NCBI GenBank assembly: GCA_964506185.1
Contig: CAZDKL010000004.1
Span: forward strand, 179-64,178
From: an uncultured Candidatus Peribacteria bacterium
Lineage (GTDB): Bacteria; Patescibacteriota; Gracilibacteria; Peribacterales; Peribacteraceae
Direction: 5' to 3'
Length of the DNA stretch: 64,000 nt
Within the stretch, counting starts at the first letter, position 1; every line of letters begins with the position of its first letter. The position numbers and the translations under genes were made by a program. Shown one piece after another: positions 8,988 to 40,930 of this stretch. The notes beneath the pieces were generated by a model. The model did not search any database. It was given only the letters and a program-made list of their open reading frames with translations, and was not told where the DNA came from.

Positions 8988-9881
8988 ATGCGATATATGA
9001 ATCTCTGGCAATCTCCTCAATGGCAAAAGTATCAGGAGTCTCTCGGGCGCGAAGTCCGTCAATACGACTCTTCACTTGTTGTTATCGATCGAACAACCGG
9101 AGGTTATTCGACGTGGGAAACGACTAGAGTTGAAAGTTGTAAGTTGAAAATGGATAGTGATTTAATAAAAACAATTGTTGAAGATGCAAAAAAGGATAAA
9201 TGCTTTGCCTTGTACTTTTCTTTGGAAAGAAATAAAACTTTCAACTTACCATTTACAACTTTCAACTCTTTTCGCCACATTGTTCCGGAAGCTACACGGA
9301 TAATTGATCTGACAAAATCTGAGGATGAAATATTGGCGCAGATGAAACAGAAGGGTCGCTACAACATTAAGGTTGCTATGAAACATGACGTTGTAGTTAA
9401 GAAGTCGACTGATGTTGATGATTTTTATGAACTTATAAAAAAGACTTCTGCTCGGGATCAGTTCAAGCCGTTATCTAAAGATAGATATGAAGCATTTTTA
9501 AATAATCTTGGAAGTTCATTCATGTTCATTGCTTACACACCAATTGAACATTGCCTATTGCCTATTGCTGGCCTAATCGGAGTGATTTATAAAGATCAGG
9601 GAATCTATTACTACGGTGCCTCTTCTTATGAACATAGGAACTTGATGGCTCCTTATCTACTCCAATGGGAAGCAATGAAATACTGCAAATCAAATGGATG
9701 TACTTCGTACGATCTATTTGGAATTGCTCCGCCTGAAAAACCTGACCATCCTTGGAAAGGCGTAAGTGAGTTTAAAGAGAAGTTTGGGGGAAGTATTGTG
9801 AGTTATCCAGAAGAAAAAATAATTGTTCTGAAACCATTGATATATAACTTAATACAAATAAAGAGGAAGTTATTTAAATAA
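8988..9881 (+). CDS. FemAB-family peptidyltransferase (lipid II amino-acid transferase-like)
   Basis: ATRIIDLTKSEDEILAQMKQKGRYNIKVAMKH, YYYGASSYEHRNLMAPYLLQWEAMKYCKSNGCTSYDLFGI and GVSEFKEKFGG follow the FemAB/FemX pattern (recognised from memory). Confidence 0.7.
   Translation: MRYMNLWQSPQWQKYQESLGREVRQYDSSLVVIDRTTGGYSTWETTRVESCKLKMDSDLIKTIVEDAKKDKCFALYFSLERNKTFNLPFTTFNSFRHIVPEATRIIDLTKSEDEILAQMKQKGRYNIKVAMKHDVVVKKSTDVDDFYELIKKTSARDQFKPLSKDRYEAFLNNLGSSFMFIAYTPIEHCLLPIAGLIGVIYKDQGIYYYGASSYEHRNLMAPYLLQWEAMKYCKSNGCTSYDLFGIAPPEKPDHPWKGVSEFKEKFGGSIVSYPEEKIIVLKPLIYNLIQIKRKLFK
9127..9268. repeat. Palindromic element embedded in frame in the femX-like CDS
   Basis: A perfect 16-bp inverted repeat, gagttgaaagttgtaa (9127-9142) / ttacaactttcaactc (9253-9268), has arms extended by gttgaaa-type simple repeats. 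It encodes the segment VESCKLKM...FNLPFTTFNS. Confidence 0.8.
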
Positions 9882-9890
9882 CTAATTAAA

Positions 9891-9952
9891 CCTCACCCCC
9901 GCCCTTAACAGGGCACCCCCTCTCCTTTTAGGAGAGGGGGAAGGGGGTGAGG
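9891..9952. terminator. Bidirectional nested hairpin between convergent femX-like and S-layer genes
   Basis: cctcaccccc (9891-9900) pairs with gggggtgagg (9943-9952). The inner ccccctctcc pairs with ggagaggggg around a tttta loop. Confidence 0.65.
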
Positions 9953-10024
9953 TAAAAATTAAGAATAAGAAAAAGACCTCCAGGATATGGAGGTCTTCTT
10001 CTATATAAACAACTAAGCGGGGTA

Positions 10025-14329: not shown

Positions 14330-14404
14330 ATATATAGGAGTAAAAAATAGATAAATAAAAATTACGGAACGAATAATAAGGGGTTGATTGTGTCTGTTTG
14401 TAAA

Positions 14405-14501
14405 GCAATTGGCTATTGGCTTGTGGCTATTGGCTTGTTCATTGATTATTAATTTATTAATAATCAATGTGGCCAATTGCCAACTGCTAATTGCTAATTG
14501 C
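14405..14501. repeat. Long simple-repeat hairpin in the S-layer gene 5' region
   Basis: gcaattggctattggcttgtggctattggcttgttcattgattattaa / ttaataatcaatgtggccaattgccaactgctaattgctaattgc. Confidence 0.8.
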
Positions 14502-15118
14502 CATTTTGCATTGCCCAAAAGACAAACCCAGGGCTCTTGGTGTCAAAGAGGGACGGCATATTGCCGACCGCCTCCTTATGCAATAAAGAGTGGACACGAG
14601 CAAAAGGTGAGGCCTTCTCTGGAGTAATGCCAACTATCGCAGCCCTCTCTCAAAGCGGCGATATGAAAATCCTGCCTTTGCACATAATGTGAGCAATAAG
14701 CGCACAGCACAAAAGTAGGCATAAGAAAATACGGCTCTATTCTGTCCATCATCGGACTTTAAGAGCGTTAAATTGTCTTGTCGCCCCAATCTCGAGGTTA
14801 GGGGAGGCAAGTTGCCGAATTGTGAAAGATCGATTGACACAGACACGCCCCCCTAGGCTCCGGAGTGCGAATCTTTACAGGAAATCCTAGGAGAATGGCG
14901 GCAGAGAATCAAGACTCCCATACCGTTCCGCGTCACAGCATTAAACGAGAAGTAATGTTCCGCGTTACAGGCTTATGTAAGCCAAAGTTGGCATATTTGG
15001 GAGCAGTACGGGAATACCCTAAAAATTTTGAGTCCTATATCACCTTTAAGACTCATATTTGATGAGAATGGGGTATTTGAAAAGAGGTTGTTTTAATCTA
15101 TATTTATTGTCTTATAAC

Positions 15119-16507
15119 CTATAATTTCTTCACATTTTGCCCGCCATTCTCATCTCTCACCTCCCATCCCAAGTCCCTAATTTTGTCTCTAAGCTGATCC
15201 GAAGCTTCGAAGTCCTTGCCATCGCGAGCTGCCTGACGTTGATCCAAAAGCTCCTGAACCTTTGCCGGAACCTCGGCTGACTCCTCCGGTTCGAAGCACC
15301 CGAAGGTGGACCTGACCTTGGAGGCGAACTTCTTGAGCGCTCCAGGTGATCCTTCCGATCTAGACCAAGTCATAGTATCAAAGACAACAGCTAATGCCTC
15401 CGGCGCATTCAAGTCTGAGTTCATCGCATTATCAAACTTGTCTGACCACTCCTCTGACTCTTCTGATTCCTCTGATTCTTCTACTTCTTTCATAAATTCA
15501 ACAATTTTCCGGCGCGCCTTGTGTGAATCACTCAATCCTTTTTCAGTAAACTTCAAATTGGTTCTGTAATGAACCGACAAAAAATAGTAACGAAGATCCA
15601 AAGCTGAGTATCCCATCTCCTCGATGTTGGTAAGTGTAAGAATATTTCCTAAGCTCTTCGACATTTTCTCTTTACCCATATCGATACGACGACGATGCAC
15701 CCACATTCGGACAAAAGGCTTTTTACCTGACGCGCATTCGGACTGAGCAATCTCGCACTCATGGTGCGGGAAAATATTATCTTGGCCTCCGGTGTGAATA
15801 TCTATTTGTTCACCAAGGAACTTTGTACTCATTGCTGAACATTCAATATGCCAACCCGGGAATCCCTCTCCCCAAGGGGAATCCCATCTGAGAATGTGAT
15901 CTGCGTTCTCTCCAACGCACTTTTTCCATAAAGCGAAGTCTGCAGGATGCTTTTTATCTTCGCTGACTTCGACTCTTTTTCCTGCATCTAAATTATCAAG
16001 TGTGTTGCCAGAAAGCGCTCCGTATGGGGCAAAAGTTTGAACACTAAAGTAGATCCCATCTTCAGTTTCATATGCATTCCCTTTATCAACCAAAACCTGA
16101 ACGATCTCAATCATTTCTTTTATTGTCTCAGTCGCTCGCGGCCTGTGCTCCGGCTCTCTCATGTTAAGAGATTTCTCATCCTCTAAGTATTCAGCCTCAT
16201 ATTTCCTGGCAACATCCAAAGGATTAATCTTCTCTTTCTTAGCTTGTTTCTCAATCTTATCTTCCCCCTCATCCTGATCTGCAACCAAGTGCCCCACGTC
16301 AGTAATGTTTTTTACATGTGTAACTTTGTTACCGTTAACCTCAAGCCATCTGGCCAAAATATCAGCCATCAGAAACGAAGAGTAATTCCCAATATGCGGA
16401 CGACCATAAACTGTTGGTCCACACGTATACATGCTTGCCTGACCTTCTTTGATCGGTTTAAATTCCTCCTCTTTCTTCGAGAGCGTGTTGTAAAGCTTAA
16501 GGGGCAT
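15119..16507 (-). CDS. cysS: Cysteine--tRNA ligase
   Basis: Class I motifs HIGN ([11 protein letters not shown]) and KMSKS ([10 protein letters not shown]), plus the cysS-typical [19 protein letters not shown]. Confidence 0.96.
15458..15480. repeat. 23-nt repeat-family segment inside the cysS CDS (encodes [10 protein letters not shown])
   Basis: ctcttctgattcctctgattctt is the exact reverse complement of the intergenic hairpin arm at 38681-38703 (aagaatcagaggaatcagaagag). Confidence 0.85.
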
Positions 16508-17751: not shown

Positions 17752-17835
17752 TTAGTGAGTAGTGAGTAGTTGGTAGTTGGTAGAATATATATGAAAATGT
17801 TATATACTTTCTACACACTACCAACTACCAACTAA
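17752..17835. repeat. Simple-repeat hairpin upstream of the aldolase gene
   Basis: ttagtgagtagtgagtagttggtagttggtaga ... tctacacactaccaactaccaactaa. It shares a 19-mer with the 23S expansion segment. Confidence 0.8.
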
Positions 17836-17839
17836 TCAT

Positions 17840-19216: not shown

Positions 19217-19260
19217 AAACTAGCAACTAGAAACTAGCAAACTAGCAAACTAGCCAACTA
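19217..19260. repeat. Tandem simple repeat (aactagca units)
   Basis: aactagcaactagaaactagcaaactagcaaactagccaacta lies downstream of the yidC stop codon. Confidence 0.8.
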
Positions 19261-19284: not shown

Positions 19285-20484
19285 CTACTTACGCAAATCG
19301 CTCCTGTTAACGATGATCTGCTGCCCAATCGCAAACAAGGTCGACACTCCCCAATAAAGACTGACTGCTGCGGGGAATTGGAGTGCAAAGAATCCAATCA
19401 TAAATGGAAGTCCATACATCATTACTTTTTGCTGAGTCTCTTGCGCTGATGGCGGATCTTTCTTCCCTGACTTATCTTGCTTCTTCTTCGCTATAGCAAA
19501 ACTGAGTTTCATTTGCAGGAACTGTGCTACAACCAATAGTGGCGGCATAACAAGCTTGCTTGGTTCGACCAAATTTAGCCCAAGGAACTGCGTTCCAAAC
19601 GACCATGATAGATTTTGATGCAAGTCATAAAGAAGATGACTTGAAAGTTCCAGAACTGACCCGTCTCTGATGACAAAGAAGAGTCCAATCAAAACCGGGA
19701 ACTGAATTAAGATAGGCATGCATGACTGCATGGGGTTTACTTTGTTCTCTTTCCACAACCTCATTGTCTCCTGTTGCATTTTTTGCGGATCTCCTTTGTA
19801 TTTCCTCTTAATGGCATCAATCTGAGGCTGAACTGCCTGCAGTTTCTTTTGCCCCTCAAGACCGTGTTGAGTTGGTACAAACAAAATCAGTTTGACCAAG
19901 ATTGTTAGGATAATGATCGCAATTCCTAAGTTGTAACCCGGTGTCCAGGATGCAATAAGAACCAGAAGATTCAAAAGGGGTTTCGAAATGAATGCTCTGA
20001 AGGCTCGCGTCATAGGACCGGCTTCATGAATTTTAAAATCAACTGATAATGCTTCATCGTCCGCTGACTTAACATCTGCCAGCACAAGCTTGTATTCACC
20101 AAGCTCAGAGAATAACGAATACTTCCAGGAATCAAGTTCATAAATCTTCCTCTCTCCCGCCTTAATCTCTGTTAAAGCTTCACAAGGAAGTGCTATCTCT
20201 TCTGTAGTTTGAGCTTCATCACCTTTGAAGACATCAAATGGAGGCATCGGACATTTGTCCTCTAAGACTATAGTCTCCTCTGTTCCATTTTTGATAATTG
20301 CAATTGGATGATGCCCATTTTTAACTGTTGCATCCTGCATTGTAAGGACCACTCCAGTAGCTCCATTCTTTTCTCCTCCAAAATACTGTGGGAAAAAGAG
20401 TTTTAGGGAGAACTGGACCAGAAAATATAGGACCAGAAAGATAAGGAAAAACTCTATAAAATCACGCAGTTTGCTTTTAGCCAT
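19285..20484 (-). CDS. yidC: Membrane protein insertase YidC
   Basis: YidC/Oxa1 core: NLGIAIIILTILVKLILFVPT...KLQAVQPQIDAIKRKYKGDPQKMQQETMRLWKENKVNPMQSCMPILIQFPVLIGLF. It lies directly downstream of rnpA (shared base at 20484). Confidence 0.92.
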   Translation of the reverse strand: MAKSKLRDFIEFFLIFLVLYFLVQFSLKLFFPQYFGGEKNGATGVVLTMQDATVKNGHHPIAIIKNGTEETIVLEDKCPMPPFDVFKGDEAQTTEEIALPCEALTEIKAGERKIYELDSWKYSLFSELGEYKLVLADVKSADDEALSVDFKIHEAGPMTRAFRAFISKPLLNLLVLIASWTPGYNLGIAIIILTILVKLILFVPTQHGLEGQKKLQAVQPQIDAIKRKYKGDPQKMQQETMRLWKENKVNPMQSCMPILIQFPVLIGLFFVIRDGSVLELSSHLLYDLHQNLSWSFGTQFLGLNLVEPSKLVMPPLLVVAQFLQMKLSFAIAKKKQDKSGKKDPPSAQETQQKVMMYGLPFMIGFFALQFPAAVSLYWGVSTLFAIGQQIIVNRSDLRK

Positions 20485-28109: not shown

Positions 28110-28126
28110 TAATACAATATCTCCCT

Positions 28127-29014: not shown

Positions 29015-29023
29015 GAAGGGTAC

Positions 29024-29191
29024 CTATTTTTTCCCCCAAATTGAAAATCCTAACATGCCAGTAGCTACAAAAAGAGGAATTATTATTATCGCATCTTCCA
29101 TCAATGCTTCAGATGGATGTGTTAGATTTAAATCATGAAGCAAGGCAAGTATTAATAATCCCAAAGACAGAAAGAAGAAAAATATCCGCAT
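29024..29191 (-). CDS. Possible 55-aa membrane peptide (below the ORF-track cutoff)
   Basis: My own translation: MRIFFFFLSLGLLILALLHDLNLTHPSEALMEDAIIIIPLFVATGMLGFSIWGKK. Confidence 0.3.
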   Translation of the reverse strand: MRIFFFFLSLGLLILALLHDLNLTHPSEALMEDAIIIIPLFVATGMLGFSIWGKK

Positions 29192-29237
29192 ACAAGATAA
29201 TGCTACATATGCTCTAAACCTTAATCAATCTGACTTA

Positions 29238-29570
29238 TTAAATCGTAGATCCAATTTTTAATATATCCCAGGTATTTCCTTTAGTATCTACCCCCTGACA
29301 GATTGGCTCATCAAAAATTGTATCTGTGCAATACATATCATCTAACCTGACTGGACTGCCATTTGTTAAAAATACTGTCATGCTCATCCCGTTATTGTTC
29401 CTAACATATAGACTTTGACAATCGCTACTTTCAGAATATGGCCTCTTGCATACCATAAGGTACTCTTTGCCTGTAAAAAATGGATCTTTTTGATAAGTAT
29501 TTCCTCCACAGCTGAATAATAGTAATAATGACAAACCCAATAATGATTTTTTATTACTCATAAACTCCAT
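29238..29570 (-). CDS. Small lipoprotein
   Basis: Signal peptide and lipobox: MSNKKSLLGLSLLLLFSCGG. Confidence 0.6.
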   Translation of the reverse strand: MEFMSNKKSLLGLSLLLLFSCGGNTYQKDPFFTGKEYLMVCKRPYSESSDCQSLYVRNNNGMSMTVFLTNGSPVRLDDMYCTDTIFDEPICQGVDTKGNTWDILKIGSTI

Positions 29571-29597
29571 TATAGGATAGTACGCTATACTTACTAT

Positions 29598-30002
29598 ATG
29601 CAAATAACCAAGAAGAAGTTTATAGCCATATTACCTATTGCACTGCTCGTAACAGCATGCATTCCAACTATTCAAGATACACAGGAAAAATCACAACTCG
29701 ATAACAAGATTAAATGTCATGAATTTGGAATGAAGAATTATTTCGAAGAAGAAAGCAAATACAAGTGGTATCCCGAGCAAGTATTTGCTTACAGTCCAGA
29801 TCTAGATTCATGTTTGTATTACTATCGATTTTTCACAGAAAATAATTCAGGCAGAGGGATAGTGGATATGTTTTCGGATAAATCACTATCTATTTATATG
29901 CCAATTTGTAACAAGAGAAATAAATGTTCTGATACTCTAAAAGCTGAAGATGCAAAGAGCTTTGATGATTTTATGGCTGTGTATAATAAGTATTTTGAAT
30001 AG
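29598..30002 (+). CDS. Small lipoprotein
   Basis: Signal peptide and lipobox: KKKFIAILPIALLVTAC. Confidence 0.6.
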   Translation: MQITKKKFIAILPIALLVTACIPTIQDTQEKSQLDNKIKCHEFGMKNYFEEESKYKWYPEQVFAYSPDLDSCLYYYRFFTENNSGRGIVDMFSDKSLSIYMPICNKRNKCSDTLKAEDAKSFDDFMAVYNKYFE

Positions 30003-30006
30003 GGCG

Positions 30007-30048
30007 CCCATCAAAAGCACCCCCTAGGGTTGTTTATTGGTACCATGA
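30007..30048 (+). repeat. 42-bp direct repeat, copy A
   Basis: cccatcaaaagcaccccctagggttgtttattggtaccatga matches 40 of 42 positions of 32230-32271. Confidence 0.9.
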
Positions 30049-30063
30049 TGGACACATTGGTTT

Positions 30064-31062
30064 TTAGTTGTTTTTAAACAATGACCACAGCCAGCGCCAA
30101 AATCCGCCCTTTGATGAATCAGTATCATTATTAATCTGCGGCTTATCTTCAATACTTTCTACAGGCACCGATTCAATTTTCTCTAGCTCTGCACTACTAC
30201 TTACAATTGGCTGTGCACCAACCATAGGTGCTTCTTCTTGTGGATTGCATACATCGCCCCATAAGCCAGTTCTTTTCTCACGAGCTTCTTTCTCATCACT
30301 ATTGTAATCATCTAGTCTGGGATGTGGATATTTTTTGTAACTGTGTGCATATCCTTCTTTTATCATCTGTTTTCCAATATCTCTACCTAAATAATGAACG
30401 TAACGCAATAGGCGACCATATACATCGCGATTCTCTGCTGGATTTTTCACCAGCGTTACATACTTATCACCAATAAGTTGTTTAAGCTTTGCGCCAGCTT
30501 CTTTACCAAAGCATTCAACTGGCTTGCTAGGATGCACGGTCTCAGGTGAATCGATACCTATGATTCTCACTTTCTCTCTTTTATTATCACAAAAAAATGC
30601 AAAAGTATCTCCATCAATCACCTCGGATACTTGGGTCATGAAGCTGTTCACTTCGCAATCCAAGAGGCAATTATTTCCAATTTCCTTGTAACCATCGTTG
30701 CATAGCCAAACGTCAGTACCGTTGTTAGCTTTATGAGAATTGTCTGGCACTTTTGCACAGGACTGGCCATTCAATGATGGCAAATATCCTACATTACATT
30801 CACACAAACTGGCTGATTTATTATATTTTGCATTTGCGGGGCATCTCGGAGTTGTAGGAACATACTTAGGAGTAGGTGCATACGTAGGCGTTGGGGAACG
30901 ATACCCTCCATGACAATGCCTAGCATTCCATGTCTCACCCCAATAATCACATCTTGTTCTACAGTAATGACATCCATCTGAAGCAGTTCTACCAGGGTGT
31001 GCTTCTACTACGATTGGTAGAATTAATATTGCCAATGCAAGAATTAGTCTATTTATTGTCAT
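30064..31062 (-). CDS. Secreted thermonuclease (SNase-like) with a His/Cys-rich leader and EGF-like Cys modules
   Basis: Signal peptide. SNase core: VIDGDTFAFFCDNKREKVRIIGIDSPET...ECFGKEAGAKLKQLIGDKYVTL...DVYGRLLRYVHYLGRDIGKQMIKEGYAHSY...EAREKRTGLWG. Confidence 0.88.
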   Translation of the reverse strand: MTINRLILALAILILPIVVEAHPGRTASDGCHYCRTRCDYWGETWNARHCHGGYRSPTPTYAPTPKYVPTTPRCPANAKYNKSASLCECNVGYLPSLNGQSCAKVPDNSHKANNGTDVWLCNDGYKEIGNNCLLDCEVNSFMTQVSEVIDGDTFAFFCDNKREKVRIIGIDSPETVHPSKPVECFGKEAGAKLKQLIGDKYVTLVKNPAENRDVYGRLLRYVHYLGRDIGKQMIKEGYAHSYKKYPHPRLDDYNSDEKEAREKRTGLWGDVCNPQEEAPMVGAQPIVSSSAELEKIESVPVESIEDKPQINNDTDSSKGGFWRWLWSLFKNN

Positions 31063-32174
31063 AATTTAGAATAATCTTCTGTGAACTTATCTACCTTTTC
31101 CTGTAATGCAGGATCTCTCTCAGCTTTTGATAAAGCATCCATCTTCCAGGATACTTTACCTTGCTTCCTCAGATCTTCCATCATTTTAGTGGCACTATTT
31201 TGTGCTTCGGCAATCTGTGATCTACTCATTTTGCTTCGAGCTTCATCCATTTTTTCCTTTGCATCAGGTACCCCTTGAGATCTAGCAATACTCAACCAAA
31301 CATATGCAAGCACTTGATTCTTTGGCACACCAATTCCAAGTGCATACATATCACCAAGATGATATTGAGCAAGAGGATCACCCTGTTGTGCTGATTTACT
31401 TAACCATTTCGCTGATTCATTCCAATCTTCTGTGACACCAATTCCATTAAAATAATCCATTCCTACAGAGAATTGCGCATCCGAATTTCCATTTTCAGCC
31501 GCTTCCAGATACATCTCAAAAGCCTTAACATGATCTTGGGGCACTCCATAACCAAGGCTGTGCATTACTGCTAACTGATACAAAGCCTCAACATAACCCA
31601 ACTCAGTTGCTCTTTCGTATAATTGATTTGCTTTCGTGTAATCTTTTTTGACCCCCAAGCCACTCGTATATAGCTTACCTAATAAATATTGAGCAGATGG
31701 AAAATCTTGATCTGCAGATTTTTTGTACCAATAAGCTGCCTTTTTGTAATTCTGCGTTACTCCATTCCCACCCTGATGCATATAACCAAGCAAATACTGC
31801 CCAAATGGGCATTTATCTTTAGCTGATTTACGAGCCAATTTGATCGCTTTTTTATAATCTACATCAACACTTTGGCCTAAATAGTACATTGACGAAAGCA
31901 TTGATGTTGCAGCAGGGTCACCCAAATCATGAGCTTTCTTAAACCACTCAAGTGACTTGTCGAAGTTTTGTTCAATTCCCTTTCCTTCATAATATCGTCT
32001 GCCAATTTCAGCTACCACAGTCAAATCGCCTTCTTTTTCCTTATTAAATAATTCCTCCATCGTAAATGCATGCATCTCTTGATAATTTATATTATCAAAC
32101 ACACTACTATCACTATTAATAGTACAACTTGCACATAAGATTGTTATCAAGGCAATGACGGCGAGTCTTTGCAT
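31059..32174 (-). CDS. Sel1-repeat (SLR/TPR-like) lipoprotein
   Basis: Lipobox ITILCASC, then seven or more Sel1 repeats (e.g. AQYLLGKLYTSGLGVKKDYTKANQLYERATELGYVEA). It overlaps the nuclease gene by 4 nt. Confidence 0.88.
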   Translation of the reverse strand: MQRLAVIALITILCASCTINSDSSVFDNINYQEMHAFTMEELFNKEKEGDLTVVAEIGRRYYEGKGIEQNFDKSLEWFKKAHDLGDPAATSMLSSMYYLGQSVDVDYKKAIKLARKSAKDKCPFGQYLLGYMHQGGNGVTQNYKKAAYWYKKSADQDFPSAQYLLGKLYTSGLGVKKDYTKANQLYERATELGYVEALYQLAVMHSLGYGVPQDHVKAFEMYLEAAENGNSDAQFSVGMDYFNGIGVTEDWNESAKWLSKSAQQGDPLAQYHLGDMYALGIGVPKNQVLAYVWLSIARSQGVPDAKEKMDEARSKMSRSQIAEAQNSATKMMEDLRKQGKVSWKMDALSKAERDPALQEKVDKFTEDYSKL

Positions 32175-32229
32175 GTGACAAAGGTAGTACTATTTGAACT
32201 AGGCCACAAGCTTATAGCTAATGGGGGTA

Positions 32230-32271
32230 CCCATCAAAAGCACCCCCTAGGGTTCTATATTGGTACCATGA
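32230..32271 (+). repeat. 42-bp direct repeat, copy B
   Basis: cccatcaaaagcaccccctagggttctatattggtaccatga. Confidence 0.9.
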
Positions 32272-32313
32272 CGAACAAATCCTAAATACCATTTTATGTT
32301 ATAATATGCATAT

Positions 32314-32667
32314 ATGAGTGATAAGAAGAAGATAGGTAGGCCAACCAAATACAACGATGAAATTCTGAATAAAGCAAAATCATATGTTTCACACTGCCAA
32401 GATAAAGAAAAAATTCCCTATATCGAAGAATTAGCCCTTATTTTAGACATAAACGACGATACAATCGTTGAATGGACAAAGAAGCACAAAGAGTTTTCCG
32501 CCACTATAGATCAACTCAAAACGCTTCAGAAGCTACGAATTAAGGATGGTGCTTTAACCAAGCAATTACATCCTTCTACTTCGATGTTTCTACTTAGAGC
32601 CAATCATGGAGTTAGTGATAGACGTTATGATAAGCCTGAGAATGTAGAGTTTGTAATTACACTGTAG
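32314..32667 (+). CDS. Terminase-small-subunit-like HTH protein
   Basis: GRPTKYNDEILNKAKSYV...IPYIEELALILDINDDTIVEWTKKHKEFSATI...STSMFLLRANHG follows the phage TerS / gp3-like pattern. Confidence 0.6.
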   Translation: MSDKKKIGRPTKYNDEILNKAKSYVSHCQDKEKIPYIEELALILDINDDTIVEWTKKHKEFSATIDQLKTLQKLRIKDGALTKQLHPSTSMFLLRANHGVSDRRYDKPENVEFVITL

Positions 32668-32673
32668 TAGCAT

Positions 32674-32970
32674 ATGTATGTGTTCAGGAACTGTGTTTTT
32701 ATTGGCTCTCTGTTGCTGATTGGATGTACTTCAACTTCTTACGATATTGATTTAAAATGCAAAAATGGTCGTACAGATGCTGGAAACCCATATTTCCGAG
32801 TTGATGCTTTTTCAAGAGATAGAAAAACTGAGACGTTGACTTGTTACTGGGGAGAATATTTCAAAGTAAAATGCGCAAGTAATACATCAAGAAGAATTGA
32901 CGATGAATACTTCTGCACAACACACGATGGCAAGAGCGTGCGGGTACAACTAGAGAAAGAAGACACCTGA
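32674..32970 (+). CDS. Small lipoprotein
   Basis: Lipobox: IGSLLLIGCTS. Confidence 0.5.
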   Translation: MYVFRNCVFIGSLLLIGCTSTSYDIDLKCKNGRTDAGNPYFRVDAFSRDRKTETLTCYWGEYFKVKCASNTSRRIDDEYFCTTHDGKSVRVQLEKEDT

Positions 32971-32984
32971 TAAAATAGGTAACT

Positions 32985-33773
32985 CTAAGTATTCTCTAAG
33001 TTTTTCGGTGCGTTATAGTTTTCCATCTGCTTCAGTTGCTCGCGTTTCTGAATCTCCTGAGCCTTCTTAAACCAATTGCCAAGCCCCTTGGTAGTTAGAG
33101 AATCGATTTTCCTCTCTAATAGCCACGATGCATGATGCTGAAGCTCGACCTTCATTTTTATTTTGCCTAGATATCGCTCAACAATGGGATCAAGGCTTTC
33201 AACTGTTACCACATTGGTAATTCCATGCCTATTACACATCTCTTCTATCGAATCAAATAATGCTTTTGTTTCAAATCGCACGTTCGTATTCTTGTAATTC
33301 TTTTCATTATTCTCATTATTTTCATTCTTGTTAATGGATGGACGTTGTTGGTTCTCTTTTAGTCTATCTTTGGAATCTTCATTGGTATGTTCCTTGGTTC
33401 GTTCGTAGTTAGTTAGATTCTGATATTTATCGTAGTTAATAACAGTAATTAATATTCCTCTTGGTTTTTTCGCAGTGGTTATTCGATTGGTATCTCGTAA
33501 GTATTTCAGTACACGTTTCGCTGTGCTGTCGCTCGCATTCTTTCTGCAACAGCCAATGTAGTAACGTAACTGATCAAGCAATTCTCCACTATGACAAAAA
33601 TATTGCCCACGTTCTACCGTGAAACCACGGTAACGTTTTCTTTCATGGTTAGCCTTGCCGATAATATATATAAAAATTTTTAAGTAAGTTGGAGGCATCT
33701 CCCATATATCGCTTGTAAATAAGCTACGTGAGAGTTGGAAAGCGCCTTGGCTGTGATTATCAGTCAGTGGCAT
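32985..33773 (-). CDS. Replication/DnaD-like winged-helix protein of a mobile element
   Basis: FQLSRSLFTSDIWEMPPTYLKIFIYIIGKANHERKRYRGFTVERGQYFCHSGELLDQL...RVLKYLRDTNRITTAKKPRGILITVINYDKYQ is a pattern common in phage/plasmid replication-organiser proteins (family not verified). Confidence 0.5.
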   Translation of the reverse strand: MPLTDNHSQGAFQLSRSLFTSDIWEMPPTYLKIFIYIIGKANHERKRYRGFTVERGQYFCHSGELLDQLRYYIGCCRKNASDSTAKRVLKYLRDTNRITTAKKPRGILITVINYDKYQNLTNYERTKEHTNEDSKDRLKENQQRPSINKNENNENNEKNYKNTNVRFETKALFDSIEEMCNRHGITNVVTVESLDPIVERYLGKIKMKVELQHHASWLLERKIDSLTTKGLGNWFKKAQEIQKREQLKQMENYNAPKNLENT

Positions 33774-33865
33774 CGCTTTGCGTGTTAATTGTCTCCTCTA
33801 TACCTTCAGTGCGATCTCTTATCCCTTTCAGGATCAGAAAGTATTCGGCGTAGACCATTGCTCGC

Positions 33866-34075
33866 TCATCTAGTGTTAACACTTTCATTATCGTATAGAT
33901 CGTCCATAGGGATATGTAAAAGATGCCCTGCGTGGAATAAAATTGATTTCGGTGGTTTTACTTCGCCATTCTCGTAGCGCCATAAAGTTGATCTACTAAT
34001 GCCCAATTCATTGGCAAGCCATGTAAGTGTTACACCATTCTTGCGTCGGTAATGTCGTATAGCTGTCATATGCAC
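33866..34075 (-). CDS. XRE-family HTH regulator
   Basis: RRKNGVTLTWLANELGISRSTLWRYENGEVKPP. Confidence 0.8.
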   Translation of the reverse strand: MHMTAIRHYRRKNGVTLTWLANELGISRSTLWRYENGEVKPPKSILFHAGHLLHIPMDDLYDNESVNTR

Positions 34076-34167
34076 TGTGGTAAATATCTGTTGCCAGAAT
34101 ATCCGAAATAGGTTGGGGGTGCCATGTAAACGTTGCGCACTGCCATATAGAGTGCTACAGTGCCGAT

Positions 34168-35022
34168 ATGCTCAGTAAAAGTGTGTTTCAGATCATTGCA
34201 GAGAAGCGTAAAGAACGGCATATTTCACTCAGCTTACTTGAAGAGAAAACAGGTAAAGATCGGGCTTCGATAATGAGATGGCAAAGGGGTGAATGCATGG
34301 TGCCAAAAAAAATGGATAGCATATTGGCAGAACTTTTTTATGATAATGTTCAGGATAGGAAAAAATTTATAGAGCATTGTAAATACTCTAGAGACAAAGG
34401 AAGAAAAGAAATGAACAGAAGGCGTAACAGACGCAAAAAGATGACAGAAGCAAGCAAATTATTTAAGGCTGATTTAAATTTGGGTTGGACATCATCAAGT
34501 GATGATAATGAATACAAATATTCTTATGCATCAGTAGTTGTTAGAAATAAAAAAACGGGGCAATTTATTTTGAATGTGTGTCACAGAACATTTCGCTTTT
34601 ACGAAGATGGATATTCAGAAGATGGAAAATTACCAAAACCTTTGTACCACAAGAGTGCCCTAGAACCATATATGAGATACTGTTCAAAAAATAAAATTGG
34701 TAAATTTGCTTTGTTTGATCTTGCAAAACGAGAGGTTGAAAAATCTGATATGTTTAAAGTTTCTAGTCCAGACTGGTTCCCTATTCCAGGAGGCAAGCCT
34801 ATCATTGTTGACTCATTAGAAATCGAGAAAATACAAAAGTTTTTGGAACGAGCGCATGATTATACTAGCGTTAAAAAGTTAAAATCGGATGCAAAAGACC
34901 TTAATACAAGATTAGATCACATAAGGTCTAGAGCGAGTGAGATGCCGAAGTGTAAAGATAAACTTTTAAAAAGTATTGATAATGCATGTATCTTAATTCA
35001 AGAAAAACTATCTGATGCCTAA
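34168..35022 (+). CDS. HTH-domain protein, divergent from the XRE gene (possible switch partner)
   Basis: N-terminus IIAEKRKERHISLSLLEEKTGKDRASIMRWQRGE. The C-terminal 200 aa are unassigned. Confidence 0.6.
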   Translation: MLSKSVFQIIAEKRKERHISLSLLEEKTGKDRASIMRWQRGECMVPKKMDSILAELFYDNVQDRKKFIEHCKYSRDKGRKEMNRRRNRRKKMTEASKLFKADLNLGWTSSSDDNEYKYSYASVVVRNKKTGQFILNVCHRTFRFYEDGYSEDGKLPKPLYHKSALEPYMRYCSKNKIGKFALFDLAKREVEKSDMFKVSSPDWFPIPGGKPIIVDSLEIEKIQKFLERAHDYTSVKKLKSDAKDLNTRLDHIRSRASEMPKCKDKLLKSIDNACILIQEKLSDA

Positions 35023-36511
35023 ATACGTTGCTTACCTCAGGCGTTCAACTAAAGATGAAAAGCATCAACAGTACTCCATAAGTGCTCAAGATAAGCTATG
35101 TAAAAAATATGCTAAGCAACACTCACTTACTATTGGGAAAATAGTTACAGAAGAACACAGTGCAAGAATGGCTGGTAAACGACCTAAATTTTTGGCAATG
35201 CTTGAGGATCTAGAACAAGGCAAATATGAAGGTGTTATTGTGCACAATGTTGATCGCTTACTTCGCTCCATTGGAGATTACGCTCTTATAGATACTCTAA
35301 GAACAAGTGGTACTGAGTTTCATTTTGTTGATGGTTCTTATCCTAATACTCCAGAAGGCAACATGATGCTTGGGATTAATGTTGTCTTTGCCAAATGGTA
35401 TGTAGAAAAGCTTGGCAAGGAAGTTAAGAAAGGATTCAAGGAATCGCTTGAGCAGGGTAGATACCCAGGTGAAGCACCAGTTGGTTATCTCGACAAAGGC
35501 AAGGGTATCAAAACTCCTGATCCTGTTTACGCACCTCTTGTACGCCAAGCATTTGAGCTATACGCCACAGGAGACTATTCATTGGATTCTCTTACAGCAG
35601 AAATGAGAAAGCGTGGATTGCGTACTAAGCGAGGTCAGAAGTATGGCAAACAACTTGTAAAGGGCTCATTGCACAGAATCCTCTCGAACCCTTTCTATTG
35701 CGGAAAAGTGTTAATGAAAGGGGAAGAATACGAAGGCGGACATGAACCAATCATTTCAAAAGACCTTTTTTATCGTGTAGAAAAACTCCTTCACTCAAAG
35801 AATACTTCATTCGTTTCGCGCAAACCATTTGCATACAGAGGCTTACTTCGGTGCTCATGTGGACAGATGCTTTCGCCTTATGAAAAGAAAGGACGTATTT
35901 ACTATGGATGCCATCAAAAGGGGTGTACCCAATCAACAACTAGGGAAGGGGTGATAGACGAAGCAATCAATAATATTTTGGATAAGTTGATGTTTACAGA
36001 TAAGGAACTTGAAGCAACTCGCAAGTCTATGAAGAAACTGGAGGCATTTGTAACCGAAGAGAGAGATACAAACTTGAAATCAATAATAGCCAGAAAAGAG
36101 AAGGTCAATGATCGCCTTGGTAAAGTAAGACAGCTTGTTATTGAAGGCACCTTTGGCAAAGATGAATATGAGGAAGAGAAAGACAAGATCGAAAAAGAGC
36201 TTTCAGATATTGCAGAGGAAGAGGAGCGTATTCAAAAAATTGAAGTAAAACGATTGGATGAAGTTTATGAGTTCTTAGAACTAACCAAAAAGGCATCTTC
36301 GTACTTCAAAAAGGGAAACCTTGAAGAGAAGAGACGTATCGCACAAATGGTATTCTTAGACGTGCAGATAACAGACAAGGAAGTGACTTCTTTTAGCCTG
36401 AATGAAGCTTTTGAGACTTTGAACAGGCGTCATGATCGATGTATCGGTGCGTATGGCGGGGCTGACGAGACTCGAACTCGCGACCTTCCGCGTGACAGGC
36501 GGACGTTCTAA
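35015..36511 (+). CDS. Large serine recombinase (integrase)
   Basis: Resolvase catalytic N-terminus (VAYLRRSTKDEKHQQYSISAQ...GVIVHNVDRLLRS), recombinase domain (GEAPVGY), Cys-rich zinc-ribbon region (LRCSCGQ...YYGCHQKGC) and a coiled-coil tail. The last 58 nt are antisense to tRNA-Asp. Confidence 0.9.
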   Translation: MPKYVAYLRRSTKDEKHQQYSISAQDKLCKKYAKQHSLTIGKIVTEEHSARMAGKRPKFLAMLEDLEQGKYEGVIVHNVDRLLRSIGDYALIDTLRTSGTEFHFVDGSYPNTPEGNMMLGINVVFAKWYVEKLGKEVKKGFKESLEQGRYPGEAPVGYLDKGKGIKTPDPVYAPLVRQAFELYATGDYSLDSLTAEMRKRGLRTKRGQKYGKQLVKGSLHRILSNPFYCGKVLMKGEEYEGGHEPIISKDLFYRVEKLLHSKNTSFVSRKPFAYRGLLRCSCGQMLSPYEKKGRIYYGCHQKGCTQSTTREGVIDEAINNILDKLMFTDKELEATRKSMKKLEAFVTEERDTNLKSIIARKEKVNDRLGKVRQLVIEGTFGKDEYEEEKDKIEKELSDIAEEEERIQKIEVKRLDEVYEFLELTKKASSYFKKGNLEEKRRIAQMVFLDVQITDKEVTSFSLNEAFETLNRRHDRCIGAYGGADETRTRDLPRDRRTF

Positions 36512-36530
36512 CCAACTGAACTACAGCCCC
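36454..36530 (-). tRNA. tRNA-Asp (GTC), CCA encoded
   Basis: The minus strand reads GGGGCTGTAGTTCAGTTGGTTAGAACGTCCGCCTGTCACGCGGAAGGTCGCGAGTTCGAGTCTCGTCAGCCCCGCCA. It folds as a cloverleaf with anticodon loop CTGTCAC. Confidence 0.93.
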
Positions 36531-38680: not shown

Positions 38681-38749
38681 AAGAATCAGAGGAATCAGAA
38701 GAGTGTAAACAGGTGGCATCCTCTGATTCTTCTGCTTCTTCTGATTCTT
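38681..38749. repeat. Simple-repeat hairpin between the carboxypeptidase and ftsQ-like genes
   Basis: aagaatcagaggaatcagaagag ... cctctgattcttctgcttcttctgattctt. Confidence 0.8.
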
Positions 38750-38758
38750 CTGCCTCCT

Positions 38759-39673
38759 TTATTTATAAACCACCCTATCAGACACCCTCAGATCTATATA
38801 TTCCTTAACTTCTTCTACATTGACACCTTTCAAGAATGTTCGATAGCGTAGCAATTGCTCGTCCAAAGGCGACACCATGTCGAACCAAATGTCGATCCCC
38901 TTATCTAGATGCAAATGATATTCCTGTCCACGTATATAGACTGTCCTGCCCAAAATCGAATGACCGAATTGTTCCGACAATGCCTTTTCGGTTTCCGACA
39001 TTCTTTCAAGTAATTTTGGTCTAACAAGCACATCTCCTTCGATGGGACGAACTCCCCAATCCACAATACCAATAGCAGGCAATGATTTTGAATCTTCAGG
39101 CAACGGAACAATTACATACACTCCTTCGTCGGTTAAGTAATCAACCGTCGCTCCTGTTGAAGTTAAATCAAATTCTTGATCAGGATCTATAATTCTTAAG
39201 CGAGCTATTAGAGGATCTAATTTTATATATACACTTAATTCAGATGGATAACGTTTTGCAATCTTTATTTCTTTCAAATCTTTAATGGCATCATTTAGAG
39301 TGTTTTCAACTTCATGAGTAGGCAAAAAGAAAAGATGTTTCCCAAAATAAGGTGCCAAAATTTTCTGGACTTCTTCAATATCCAATCTCGAATCGAAGCG
39401 CACAACTTTCACTTCTCTTACTTGAATCAATGGTGAAAATACTAATAATCCAAATCCAAGAAGCAGAAGACCGAACAAGGCGATCAATATCCACCACATG
39501 CAAGATCGCCACCAGGACTTAATGGCCCTTTGGCCTCTGCGCTCAAATTTGTGCATGAAATCTTTCCATCTGTTCTTTTTATGCCTCTTTTTATGCTTCT
39601 TCACCAAACGCTTTGTCATTGGAGTAACGGGCCGGTTGTAGCGCTTTGGCAATCTTCGAGGAGGCTTGAGCAT
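38759..39673 (-). CDS. ftsQ: FtsQ/DivIB-like cell-division protein
   Basis: Basic N-terminus, a single TM helix (MWWILIALFGLLLLGFGLLVF), then a POTRA-like IQVREVKVVRFDSRLDIEEVQKILAPYFGKHLFF. ATG 39673 is preferred over GTG 39706, which lies in a hairpin arm. Confidence 0.7.
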   Translation of the reverse strand: MLKPPRRLPKRYNRPVTPMTKRLVKKHKKRHKKNRWKDFMHKFERRGQRAIKSWWRSCMWWILIALFGLLLLGFGLLVFSPLIQVREVKVVRFDSRLDIEEVQKILAPYFGKHLFFLPTHEVENTLNDAIKDLKEIKIAKRYPSELSVYIKLDPLIARLRIIDPDQEFDLTSTGATVDYLTDEGVYVIVPLPEDSKSLPAIGIVDWGVRPIEGDVLVRPKLLERMSETEKALSEQFGHSILGRTVYIRGQEYHLHLDKGIDIWFDMVSPLDEQLLRYRTFLKGVNVEEVKEYIDLRVSDRVVYK

Positions 39674-39698
39674 GCAGCTATCATAGCCAATCTGCCTG

Positions 39699-39763
39699 CT
39701 ACCCACTACTCACTACACACTATTTCAAGATCTTGAGTAAGTGAGTAGTGGGTAGTGAGTAGT
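39699..39763. repeat. Simple-repeat hairpin between divergent ftsQ-like and GT4 genes
   Basis: ctacccactactcactacacactatttcaaga / tcttgagtaagtgagtagtgggtag. It belongs to the same agtgagtag word family as 1853-1912 and 17752-17835. Confidence 0.8.
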
Positions 39764-39781
39764 AATAGTACACTCTAACTA

Positions 39782-40930
39782 ATGAAACTAGCCATTGTTG
39801 CAGATTGGTTACCGCTATACGCAGGCGCTGAGCATGTAATTGCTGAGTTTCACAAGCTTTGGCCTGATGCCCCAATATTCACCACAGTTGCAAATCATGG
39901 AAACTTAGGTCCATTGAATGGAGCTGACATAAGAACCGGTCGTTTGCAGAAATGGTACAAGCTCCTCGGCAAACATCACAGATGCCTCCTTCCTCTTATG
40001 CCGCGCGAGATGGAGAGGATTGATCTTGATGAGTATGACGTGATCCTCAGTTCTTCACACGCAATCGGAAAGGGGATTATTCCTCCAAGCAATGCAAAAC
40101 ACATTTGTTACTGCCACACTCCAATGAGGTATGCATGGGAAATGGAAAAAAAGTATTTGGAAGATTCGAATATTCCAAAGTTCTTTTGGAAAAGAATCGG
40201 AAGAAAATTAAATGAAATTAGAAGGTGGGATATGACAACTGCAAAGAGAGTCGATTTATTTATTGCTAACTCATCTACAGTTGCTAACCGTATCAAGAAA
40301 ATTTACAACCGCGATGCAACTGTCATCTTGCCTCCGGTGTCAGATAGGTTTTTTGATAATTCCAACTTAAGGGAACCGGGAACCGGGAACCGGGAACCGG
40401 GATACAGTAATACTAAAATCCCCGATCCCCGATCCCCGATCCCCGATCCCCCATATCTTGCCCTCGGCCGCCTCGTCCCCTACAAACGTTTTGACTTGCT
40501 AATTGAATGTGCAAACAAATATCAACTCCCAATTAAGATAGCAGGCAAAGGTCCGGACGAATCCAGACTGAAGAACTTGGCAGGGCCAACTGTTGAATTC
40601 CTGGGTTACGTTCCTGATGAAAAGTTGCCCGAAATTTTCGCGAATTCAAAAGCGCTTCTTTATCCACAGGAAGAAGATGCGGGCATTGCACCACTTGAAG
40701 CGCAGTCGCAGGGAACTCCCGTAATTGCATTTAAGAAAGGTGGGGCCTTGGATACTGTTGAGGAAAATGTTTCGGGAATATTCTTTAATGAACAATCAGT
40801 TGAATCTTTGAAGGAGGCTATTGATCGATTTGAAGGAATGAATTTTGATTCTGAAGTAATCGGAAAAAGAGCCGAGAATTACAGAGCGGAGAGGTTTAGA
40901 GACAAGATTGAGGAAGTTGTAAGTTTATGA
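39782..40930 (+). CDS. GT4-family (GT-B) glycosyltransferase carrying an in-frame repeat insertion
   Basis: N-terminus MKLAIVADWLPLYAGAEHV. C-terminal EX7E-type region (LLYPQEEDAGIAPLEAQSQGTPVIAFKKGGALDTVEE). Confidence 0.85.
   Translation: MKLAIVADWLPLYAGAEHVIAEFHKLWPDAPIFTTVANHGNLGPLNGADIRTGRLQKWYKLLGKHHRCLLPLMPREMERIDLDEYDVILSSSHAIGKGIIPPSNAKHICYCHTPMRYAWEMEKKYLEDSNIPKFFWKRIGRKLNEIRRWDMTTAKRVDLFIANSSTVANRIKKIYNRDATVILPPVSDRFFDNSNLREPGTGNREPGYSNTKIPDPRSPIPDPPYLALGRLVPYKRFDLLIECANKYQLPIKIAGKGPDESRLKNLAGPTVEFLGYVPDEKLPEIFANSKALLYPQEEDAGIAPLEAQSQGTPVIAFKKGGALDTVEENVSGIFFNEQSVESLKEAIDRFEGMNFDSEVIGKRAENYRAERFRDKIEEVVSL
40371..40451. repeat. Paired 7-nt tandem arrays (GGGAACC)x4 and (CCCCGAT)x4 inside the GT4 CDS
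   Basis: gggaaccgggaaccgggaaccgggaaccggga, a 16-nt spacer, then tccccgatccccgatccccgatccccgatccccc. The arms are partially complementary. The segment is translated as REPGTGNREPGYSNTKIPDPRSPIPDPP. Confidence 0.85.

Follow-up and report, generated by a model that had tools for sequence, protein, structure and literature searches.

Palindromic repeats lying in frame inside protein genes raise the question of how self-complementary DNA arises in such places, and what keeps it there while the reading frame stays open. We address this question for a 64-kb stretch of genomic DNA (the window, by which we mean the whole stretch analysed) in which an original prediction, made from the sequence alone, had placed in-frame palindromic elements in three protein genes: a femX-like gene, cysS and a GT4 glycosyltransferase gene. 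The proteins nearest to those of the window, and the 80 related loci that we collected, belong to Candidatus Peribacteria / Peregrinibacteria of the candidate phyla radiation (CPR), and contigs identical to the window occur in several marine or aquatic metagenomes. We found a Peribacteria-wide class of heptamer-periodic inverted repeats, which lie mostly in intergenic spacers, sometimes in 23S rRNA helices and in a few cases in permissive protein loops, and whose positions are kept while the sequence of the unit changes and the two arms co-vary. The femX and GT4 elements belong to this class, as do two elements in 23S rRNA; the cysS element does not. All three open reading frames (ORFs) do stay open, translation recovers the peptides originally quoted, and the elements are accordingly predicted to be translated through.

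Hairpins with heptamer-periodic arms in the window

The window was scanned for inverted repeats with a score of at least 13, using 15 locally composition-preserving shuffles as the control. The scan returned 14 inverted repeats, including 9 with period-7 arms, compared with 0-3 in the shuffles, none of which had period 7. Arms of this class are built from tandem 7-nt units (sometimes 8- or 9-nt units), and Tandem Repeats Finder (TRF), which we used to call tandem arrays, reported period-7 arrays at 11 places in the window. The hairpins occupy intergenic spacers, two helices of the 23S rRNA, femX and GT4 (coordinates in Table 1). They are confined to 1-19.3 kb and 38.6-44.9 kb, and the same scan found no periodic hairpin in the two putative integrated islands of the window. 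The predicted folds of the periodic hairpins are strong, with z-scores, calculated from shuffled controls, of -4 to -9.

A search for canonical terminators did not recover the periodic hairpins as intrinsic terminators. The window does contain a classical bidirectional intrinsic terminator at 9968-10002, where the femX and S-layer genes converge; it has a 15-bp GC stem with a T-run on either side, and ordinary terminators therefore coexist with the periodic hairpins.

Comparison with the Rfam model identified window positions 1-2090 (minus strand) as the 5' 1,791 model positions of 23S rRNA. The extended stem-loop in domain I folds as a single long stem (-59.9 kcal/mol, z = -8.9), within which a heptamer hairpin of TAGTGAG units is nested at 1854-1901; a second periodic hairpin takes the place of a variable helix further along the molecule. 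Since hairpins occur in the 23S rRNA as well as in protein genes, the idea of palindromes in both protein and RNA genes has a real basis.

Two direct octamer arrays without an inverted partner were also observed, one (CAACCTAT) x 11 at 3522-3607 in the spacer between ssb and a methyltransferase gene and the other (AAACTAGC) x 5.8 at 19217-19260 between the convergent deoC-like and yidC genes.

A split-arm hairpin at a conserved position in femX

The perfect 16-bp inverted repeat reported in femX is present: positions 9127-9142 (GAGTTGAAAGTTGTAA) are the exact reverse complement of 9253-9268, 110 nt apart. It extends to arms of 33-38 nt that are ~79% complementary, and none of 100 codon shuffles of the gene reached the score of this hairpin. 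The predicted RNA fold has z = -4.6, none of 200 shuffles (the number used for both femX and GT4) folds as well, and the helix persists in a 345-nt context.

The repeat had been thought to add about 45 amino acids to FemX. Its interior, LIKTIVEDAKKDKCFALYFS, aligns in all 14 orthologues, however, and is thus ancestral, and in a profile search it matches the helix-strand core of Staphylococcus aureus FmhB (6snr). A 45-aa insert resembling the Rickettsia palindromic elements (RPEs) was ruled out by the orthologue alignment and the FmhB match together. The FemX of the window, at 297 aa, is shorter than most of its orthologues, and the orthologues that lack a significant hairpin and have this segment in its shortest form (L012, L027, L038, L047, L068, L077 and L081) are ~8-10 aa shorter at this place, the difference being split over two loops. 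From these alignments, only the two arms are extra, each in one of two flanking loops, and the interior is part of the FemX core.

Whether the elements fall in surface loops had been proposed as a check, and in the AlphaFold models both the femX arms and the GT4 insert lie in loops or linkers that are disordered and at the surface. In the FemX model (mean predicted local distance difference test score, pLDDT, 83.4), arm 1 forms the loop 46-56, with pLDDT below 50 at residues 49-52, the interior helix (57-69) and strand (72-78) are modelled at pLDDT ~88-94, and the arm 2 region is mostly coil (79-91 and 94-98).

We asked how widely this hairpin occurs using per-species codon shuffles rather than fixed-column covariation, because the offset of arm 1 from conserved anchors varies between species and the columns are not alignable independently of the structure. 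A hairpin was called significant in a species when none of 100 codon shuffles reached its score. By this measure 24 of 75 orthologues have a significant hairpin joining the same two loops of femX. In 23 of these 24, arm 1 starts 26-42 nt past the W codon of TWEIPRGP, against 12 nt in the window, and arm 2 begins 55-139 nt after arm 1. Tandem heptamers make up the arms in every case, with units that are specific to the species (AATTGAG/AATGGAG, GGGAGTA, GACAATT, AAGTGGA, GGACTTA, GAATCTG, TTACGGA, AGCTTTA, GGGGGTG and others). Species carrying the hairpin are scattered over the whole femX tree, with decayed remnants in the species between them, and gradients from intact to decayed can be followed within a clade, for example from L023 through L051 to L060, L028 and L040. 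In the sister taxa L014 and L065, an identical A-to-G change is found in every unit of arm 1, matched by T-to-C in arm 2, a pattern that we read as concerted evolution of the whole structure. The hairpin thus appears to be old and position-conserved across the class, and not a discrete insertion.

The stem also bears the marks of coding. Repairing the mismatches of arm 1 would create in-frame stop codons in 14 of 85 cases, compared with 5.4% of control substitutions (p = 1.7e-4), and in the window the second unit is GTTGTAA instead of GTTGAAA, which avoids AGT-TGA and is accompanied by the matching change in arm 2. We also looked for an RNA-level wobble signature among the stem mismatches, read on the sense strand, and found no G:U bias (13 G:U, 25 A:C, 47 other), so tolerance of wobble pairs at the RNA level receives no support. 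The mismatch spectrum is evidence for maintenance of the stem at the DNA level over the RNA level.

Two other arrangements were seen in femX. In L082 a third variable loop, at 8575-8660, holds a compact hairpin of heptamers (SESGTQDSESGT...LIPDSGFRIPDS), and in L052 (8075-8330) arm 1 lies one loop further upstream, so that the arms enclose 191 nt.

A young pair of arrays in the GT4 linker

TRF recovered both of the arrays reported in GT4, with GGGAACC and CCCCGAT units within 40371-40451, and scored both as 100% perfect. They are complementary to one another at 5 of 7 positions and form an interrupted hairpin of -34.7 kcal/mol (z = -2.1; matched by 4 of 200 shuffles). Because each array is internally perfect yet only 5/7 complementary to its partner, each arm would have been homogenised independently. 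On the minus strand, (GGGGATC)4.9 fits exactly the GGGNATC unit known from Xanthomonas and Nostoc, and (GGGAACC)4.6 is off by one base. Units of this type form G-quadruplexes (G4), and a G4 on either strand is therefore predicted as an alternative to the weak hairpin. Only the GT4 arrays are of this type, most other units in the window having no G-tracts.

Residues 197-224 are the product of the arrays and lie between the Pfam domains Glyco_transf_4 (15-186) and Glycos_transf_1 (223-365). AlphaFold (model pLDDT 84.8) predicts coil for 196-224, and pLDDT falls below 50 at 201-212; this stretch, like 49-52 in the FemX model, includes the residues of lowest confidence in its model. Most of the 119 GT4 orthologues have ~8-10 residues at this linker, and no arrays are present in the closest of them, at 83%, 82% and 79% identity. 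Among sister species, the linker holds (GTCAATT) x 4 in L087 and unrelated sequence in L089; distant lineages have other periodic or hairpin inserts here (e.g., GIRNQE...LIPDSGL, six tandem copies of a 7-residue peptide). The comparison shows a genuine and recent insert of ~21 aa at a hypervariable, permissive interdomain linker.

An ordinary tandem repeat in cysS

The cysS element had been recognised by a 23-mer matching an arm of an intergenic hairpin. The match is real and extends to 24 nt, 15457-15480 being the exact reverse complement of 38681-38704, and the 23-mer has no match in 100 dinucleotide shuffles, even at 3 mismatches. What lies in cysS is a single in-frame tandem array and not a palindrome. 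We found no inverted partner of the array within cysS and no RNA fold (z = +0.8).

For cysS alone, we put at about even odds the explanation that two simple (GAR-GAA-TCA)n arrays match over 24 nt by coincidence and that the cysS segment is an ordinary linker, acidic and of low complexity. The absence of an inverted repeat and of a fold fits this explanation. So does the setting, the linker joining the catalytic (16-328) and DALR (357-387) domains, which is hypervariable and often repetitive in the 47 syntenic orthologues, several of which carry other in-frame repeats (EDSKDSEDS, SKESEEG, EGVEGTEGT); the closest relative, L007, has no array. The original prediction had itself allowed that the match might turn out to be a common low-complexity string, and more than 120 metagenome contigs contain the 20-mer class, with in-frame EES coding in long ORFs of unrelated organisms at 44 of the 80 loci retrieved from them. 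Since this string is common in unrelated organisms, the cysS part of the prediction is weak on its own terms. On the other side, an exact 24-nt match within 64 kb is unexpected by chance, and the 9-nt unit of the cysS array also builds a hairpin family, (GAGGAAnCA)n/(TGnTTCTTC)n, that includes the intergenic hairpin of the window and is dispersed in sister genomes (three copies in L087, two in L089). The copies at 8853-8930 in L087 and 355-445 in L089 are syntenic with that of the window. In addition, a few cysS orthologues carry true hairpins at this linker, with a 17-nt perfect stem in L045 and heptamer-periodic arms in L055 and L010. On present alignments we regard the cysS array as an ordinary tandem repeat, in frame, whose unit is also that of one hairpin family, and a shared origin with the intergenic hairpin arm is possible.

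The gene-proximal arm of the 9-nt hairpin (window 38762-38800, L087 8853-8930) has a (GAA GAA TCA)-like phasing, resembling a former or potential acidic C-terminal tail.

Distribution across Peribacteria

A femX-centred census covered 1.07 Mb flanking femX in 80 other Peribacteria species together with the window, and yielded 250 inverted repeats, among them 80 with period-7, 16 with period-8 and 15 with period-9 arms. The periodic hairpins have a median arm of 27 nt and a median loop of 35 nt, both longer than in the non-periodic ones. They are also polar. Of the 81 periodic inverted repeats with a clear arm bias, 73 carry the purine-rich arm on the 5' side and 8 the pyrimidine-rich one (p = 3e-14), whereas the non-periodic repeats show no polarity (38 purine-first vs 39). 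In a palindrome, purine-first polarity reads alike on both strands. Where the arms lie in coding sequences, they predict disordered peptides with a period of 7 residues, of E/K/G/N type for the purine-rich arm and of F/S/L/P type for the pyrimidine-rich arm.

Persistence of position with turnover of sequence is seen at several sites. Upstream of femX, a periodic hairpin is present in 18 of 73 loci of other species, all with different units, and ends 56-105 nt upstream of the LWQS motif of FemX, near the start codon. The ftsQ-GT4 spacer holds AGTGAGT heptamer units in the window and hairpins of octamer units in the sister species L087 and L089, and the spacer between the Cu-oxidase and HD genes holds a hairpin family common to the window and L089, not found in L087. 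The hairpin at 42592-42722, with units like those of the femX arms, has a syntenic copy in L089 at 4882-4978. Unit families such as NNNGTAG, AGTTAAA and AATGGAA recur at several loci per genome and across species. When dispersed copies of the AGTGAGT and 9-mer families are compared, only the periodic arms are common to them; loops and flanks are unrelated, except in syntenic orthologous copies.

Origin and persistence of the hairpins

Our preferred explanation, to which we assign a probability of roughly 0.6, is that these are lineage-wide periodic palindromes that evolve in place and are not copied as discrete mobile elements. Replication slippage would expand and homogenise the heptamer units within one arm, and intrastrand or quasipalindrome template switching, the latter a mechanism established in Escherichia coli, would copy changes from arm to arm. 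Because of this copying, the arms would stay complementary while the units drift, giving concerted evolution. Selection would act only as a filter, keeping the frame, purging in-frame stops and restricting arrays to loops. The femX structure would then be an old hairpin with its arms in two loops on either side of a conserved helix-strand unit, and the GT4 structure a young inverted pair of G-tract heptamer arrays.

Several points weigh against evolution in place. The six metagenome contigs that cover the femX region are identical over it, and no slippage or arm-conversion event was seen among these strain variants; the members of the 90%-identity clusters of femX and GT4, a small sample, likewise show no unit-number variants. 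A purely mutational model does not predict the purine-first polarity, which hints at function or selection on the structure, and the same hint comes from the recurrent placement just upstream of start codons and from the class-wide persistence of the femX hairpin, neither of which it predicts. Simple slippage does not explain two arms flanking a conserved segment of 55-139 nt, and the recurrence of unit families at several loci could reflect copying between loci. Sampling is limited, the window covering 64 kb of this genome and the other loci ~16 kb of each genome, and the femX tree is a crude neighbor-joining tree on which recurrent gain and ancestral presence were not formally separated.

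Among the alternatives, the one that survives best, though we consider it unlikely, is that the hairpins are selected functional structures, acting as RNA punctuation, RNase III sites or determinants of mRNA stability, or as DNA cruciforms or G-quadruplexes. The femX hairpin would then be a conserved cis-regulatory element within the gene, and the 23S inserts would be excised as intervening sequences (IVSs). Selection would account for the retention of position under sequence turnover at femX, upstream of femX and in syntenic spacers, for the co-variation of the femX arms, and for a polarity that is restricted to the periodic hairpins. Several hairpins have an end immediately at a start or stop codon, the stem built by the 23S insert is long and extended, and the class is distinct from the canonical terminator with its GC stem and T-run at 9968-10002. 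The 4-5 G-tracts of the GT4 arrays match the number favoured by G4-forming GGGNATC repeats (PMC4692102). Against selection, 51 of the 75 femX orthologues have no significant hairpin, the stem mismatches lack a G:U bias, concerted changes across a whole array are more simply explained as a mutational process, and GT4 turns over between sister species in an apparently neutral way. No function has been found for the Xanthomonas repeats either, although these are well studied (PMC4692102). In its most developed form, the functional explanation would have purine-first cis elements throughout the genome, fixed at gene starts, gene ends and rRNA helices, with the femX hairpin as a conserved long-range mRNA or DNA structure controlling a cell-wall gene, its arms on either side of a conserved helix-strand unit having co-evolved while their sequence was fully replaced across the class; we hold this form, too, to be doubtful. 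If it were true, femX would be a coding region with a class-wide, covarying nucleic-acid structure placed in two loops.

The comparison with RPEs made in the original prediction holds in part: palindromes do occur in protein and RNA genes, but they lack the full-length consensus of RPEs or of MITEs (miniature transposable elements with inverted repeats). That selfish mobile palindromes of either kind were transposed in frame into femX, cysS, GT4 and RNA genes seems to us improbable. In favour of mobility, the hairpins are palindromic and dispersed, and they lie in an RNA gene as well as, at surface loops, in coding sequences that stay open; close orthologues of GT4 differ in whether they carry the insert; and three loci of the window carry the AGTTAAA family and three the AGTGAGT family, with one pair of copies weakly similar in the flank. 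On the other hand, only the 7-9-nt unit is common to copies, arm length and unit number vary freely, different species have different units at the same site, and cysS has one arm only. We found no Y1/RAYT (REP-associated tyrosine transposase) or other transposase among the ~50 window ORFs scanned against Pfam, and the two putative islands carry no hairpin. In femX, the arms are separated by ancestral coding sequence, and no single insertion event therefore explains them.

Phase-variable repeats typically sit in cell-envelope genes, and both femX and GT4 act on the cell envelope. The non-triplet arrays of GT4 (and of femX) might accordingly be contingency loci, in which gain or loss of one 7-nt unit shifts the frame, and the 4.6 and 4.9 perfect heptamers within the glycosyltransferase coding sequence would fit this. 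This is very improbable given that no unit-number variants were seen in strain-level contigs or cluster members (a small sample), that the repeat class is mostly intergenic or in rRNA, that the femX units are imperfect and that the cysS unit is a multiple of 3. Least probable is an inverton within femX, bounded by the inverted repeat, whose inversion would recode or switch the protein, for although inverted repeats flank a short intragenic segment and the window encodes two serine recombinases, these are large serine integrases beside tRNA genes in islands, all assemblies show a single orientation, and inversion in silico gives stop codons in 21 of 24 species, so the segment is not a coding inverton.

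Relation to known repeats

RPEs, as Ogata and co-workers in 2000 and Claverie and Ogata in 2003 are said to have described them, are elements of 100-150 bp with a conserved family consensus that were inserted as single units. They share with the Peribacteria hairpins the presence of in-frame palindromes in protein and RNA genes, an ORF that is kept and a peptide exposed on the surface away from the core. The Peribacteria hairpins differ in having no full-length consensus, in their heptamer arms, in units that vary by locus and species, in the placement of the femX arms as two patches around ancestral sequence, and in lineage.

The IVSs of 23S rRNA are defined by their excision by RNase III, which gives fragmented rRNA. 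Here, too, an extra extended stem-loop lies at the tip of a variable 23S helix; the heptamer-periodic inner hairpin of the Peribacteria insert is no known feature of an IVS. Repetitive extragenic palindromic sequences (REPs) are extragenic and non-periodic, have a genome-wide consensus and are linked to a RAYT gene. The Peribacteria hairpins resemble REPs and REPINs (hairpin-forming REP doublets) as short, dispersed intergenic hairpins, and the (NNNGTAG)n family contains the GTAG that tags many REPs, but copies inside femX, GT4 and 23S rRNA mean that they are not extragenic only, and they have no consensus.

Cyanobacteria reportedly carry heptanucleotide repeats known as short tandemly repeated repetitive (STRR) sequences, a description attributed to Mazel and colleagues in 1990. 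In Beggiatoaceae, TAACTGA repeats are tandem and mainly intergenic, often just upstream of start codons and occasionally at the periphery of ORFs, and only one inverted heptamer case was reported for the Beggiatoa genome (PMC4679880). The Peribacteria arrays are likewise dispersed, mainly intergenic tandem heptanucleotides, often near starts. They differ in forming inverted pairs of many units, where STRR and TAACTGA repeats are essentially direct arrays of one or a few fixed units.

A close precedent is given by the GGGNATC heptamer repeats of Xanthomonas and Nostoc, which are scattered and mostly intergenic, lie near ORF ends, prefer ~4 units and have no known function (Rehm et al., 2015; PMC4692102). 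In 70-75 cases per genome, two convergent arrays on opposite strands make a potential stem-loop; the repeats keep their intergenic positions in related species while varying in length and sequence, they form G-quadruplexes, and slippage has been proposed as the cause of heptamer over-representation in bacteria (PMC4692102). Peribacteria also have dispersed, over-represented tandem heptamers, and the GT4 arrays share the unit type. The units of Peribacteria, however, are many and unrelated and mostly not G-rich (AGTGAGT, AGTTAAA, TAAGACG, GAATCTA), and inverted pairing is common (111 periodic hairpins in ~1.1 Mb), whereas it concerns only part of the sites in Xanthomonas and Nostoc. Peribacteria copies also lie in 23S rRNA and in coding sequences, and split arms of the femX type are not described for Xanthomonas or Nostoc (PMC4692102).

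Coding palindromes are known from the mitochondria of Nematomorpha, where both arms of long inverted repeats are translated and stem and coding requirements are in compromise (PMC6649704). The avoidance of stops in the femX stem reflects a similar compromise between complementarity and coding. The hairworm arms are long, perfect and non-periodic and encode conserved regions, whereas those of Peribacteria are heptamer-periodic and lie in variable loops, with the conserved part between the arms. In Borgs, the repeat units within coding sequences are reportedly multiples of 3 nt. Borg genomes have fast-evolving tandem repeats that arise locally and add disordered segments to proteins (PMC9879509). 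Tandem repeats in Peribacteria would likewise add intrinsically disordered segments; Borg repeats are direct and not inverted pairs.

Our literature search found nothing linking Peregrinibacteria with heptamer repeats, and the Peribacteria genome paper is silent on them. Inverted heptamer arrays (Xanthomonas), in-frame palindromes (Rickettsia) and coding palindromes (hairworm mitochondria) are already known. What appears to be new here is the diversity of units, their presence in rRNA and coding sequences and, above all, a split-arm femX hairpin whose position is conserved through full sequence turnover across a bacterial class. If evolution in place is the right explanation, heptamer slippage and arm templating write self-complementary, changing sequence into essential genes and rRNA of a lineage with reduced genomes, arm templating could keep arms complementary over deep evolutionary time, and the many inserts and expansion segments reported without explanation from the proteins and rRNAs of CPR would have a concrete source. 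The femX site, with dozens of species compared at one location, offers a place to separate selection on nucleic-acid structure from biased gene conversion. The class also ties the over-representation of bacterial heptamer repeats to an abundant, diverse and position-conserved system, and periodic hairpins will affect gene calling (through spurious ORF extensions), assembly and alignment in CPR genomes.

Table 1. Repeat elements, the genes that contain them and predicted peptides; coordinates are window positions.
Feature	Coordinates	Strand	Remarks
Heptamer-periodic hairpin in 23S rRNA, GAATCTA/GAATATG units	389-461	-	replaces variable 23S helix, model ~1490-1590; z = -5.8
Extended stem-loop, 23S rRNA domain I	1796-1944	-	115 nt vs 4 in Rfam model (positions ~166-170)
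Heptamer-periodic hairpin	2096-2175		immediately upstream of 23S 5' end
Heptamer-periodic hairpin, TAAGACG units	4063-4139		abuts rpoB stop codon, in rpoB-ssb spacer; fold z = -8.9
Heptamer array, AAGTTAA x 3.6, unit family of the femX arms	8950-8976		in 43-nt SOD-femX spacer
femX-like gene	8988-9881	+	FemAB family, 297 aa
femX arm 1 (GTTGAAA/GTTGTAA/GTTGAAA...)	9126-9158	+	residues 47-57, RVESCKLKMDS
femX segment between the arms, ancestral by alignment	9159-9236	+	helix 57-69 and strand 72-78, outside any insert
femX arm 2, reverse complement of arm 1	9237-9269	+	residues 84-94, TFNLPFTTFNS
Heptamer-periodic hairpin, ATTGGCT / AATTGCC arrays	14404-14505		upstream of S-layer (SLH) gene; fold z = -6.5
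cysS	15119-16507	-	
cysS in-frame 9-nt array, TCCTCTGAT x 3.7 on plus strand	15450-15482	-	(EES) x 3.7
Heptamer-periodic hairpin, NNNGTAG units	17756-17838		ends 1 nt before deoC-like ATG; fold z = -7.1
Intergenic 9-nt-periodic hairpin	38681-38760		directly after ftsQ-like stop; one arm equals cysS array over 24 nt
Heptamer-periodic palindrome, AGTGAGT units	39699-39762		divergent ftsQ-like/GT4 spacer; fold z = -6.1
GT4 glycosyltransferase gene	39782-40930	+	
GT4 array 1, (GGGAACC) x 4.6	40371-40402	+	REPGTGNREPG; sense-strand G-tract motif
GT4 array 2, (ATCCCCG) x 4.9, i.e. (GGGGATC)n on minus strand	40418-40451	+	encodes IPDPRSPIPDPP
Intergenic hairpin, AGTTAAA/AGTGAAA units as in femX arms	42592-42722		49-nt arms, 80% complementary; fold z = -4.9
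Peptides predicted if the repeat segments are translated			VESCKLK, TFNLPFTTFNSFR, EPGTGNREPGYSNTK

Other features of the window

The original prediction had extended a similar origin to a Lys-rich tail of rpoB and to an insert in rnpA. The rpoB segment is in fact N-terminal (7850-8151, minus strand), forming a Lys/Ala/Pro-rich, histone-H1-like extension of ~100 aa before the first Pfam domain, which begins at residue 162. Its 15-nt repeat is there, encoding (KKVAP) x 3 in frame, and it has no inverted repeat. Compared with the Pfam model and with the 119-aa orthologue in L087, the rnpA gene (20484-21068, minus strand) carries an insert of ~45 aa that is rich in S/T/N/R, and the start of the listed ORF is probably too far upstream; a similar origin was not borne out here, the insert having no periodic DNA and only one 15-nt inverted pair (87%) with arms 148 nt apart. 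The repeat analysis excluded both regions as members of the hairpin class. Downstream, rpoB is followed by ssb (3607-4002) and not by rpoC.

A putative integrated element occupies 25200-36530, with a GC content of 0.36-0.40. It is absent from the syntenic region of L087, where the amidase and dacA genes are ~5 kb apart, compared with ~15 kb in the window. Its genes include a terminase-small-subunit-like gp3 (32314-32667) and genes for an SNase-domain protein and a Sel1-repeat protein, the latter two flanked by a 56-nt direct repeat of 88% identity (GGGCGCCCATCAAAAGCACCCCCTAGGG...; 30002-30057 and 32225-32280), and a large serine recombinase gene (35015-36511) overlaps with its 3' end the tRNA-Asp gene (36454-36530). 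A second island-like block lies at 49879-55643, where a tRNA-Trp gene (51594-51670) is overlapped by the 3' end of another large serine recombinase gene (51605-53311, minus strand), followed by a gene for a Toprim-domain protein (53444-55342) and ORFs without a family match. Finally, positions 58302-61367 (minus strand) encode a 1,021-aa protein in which an Mrr-like restriction endonuclease domain is fused to a type III restriction / DEAD-box helicase.

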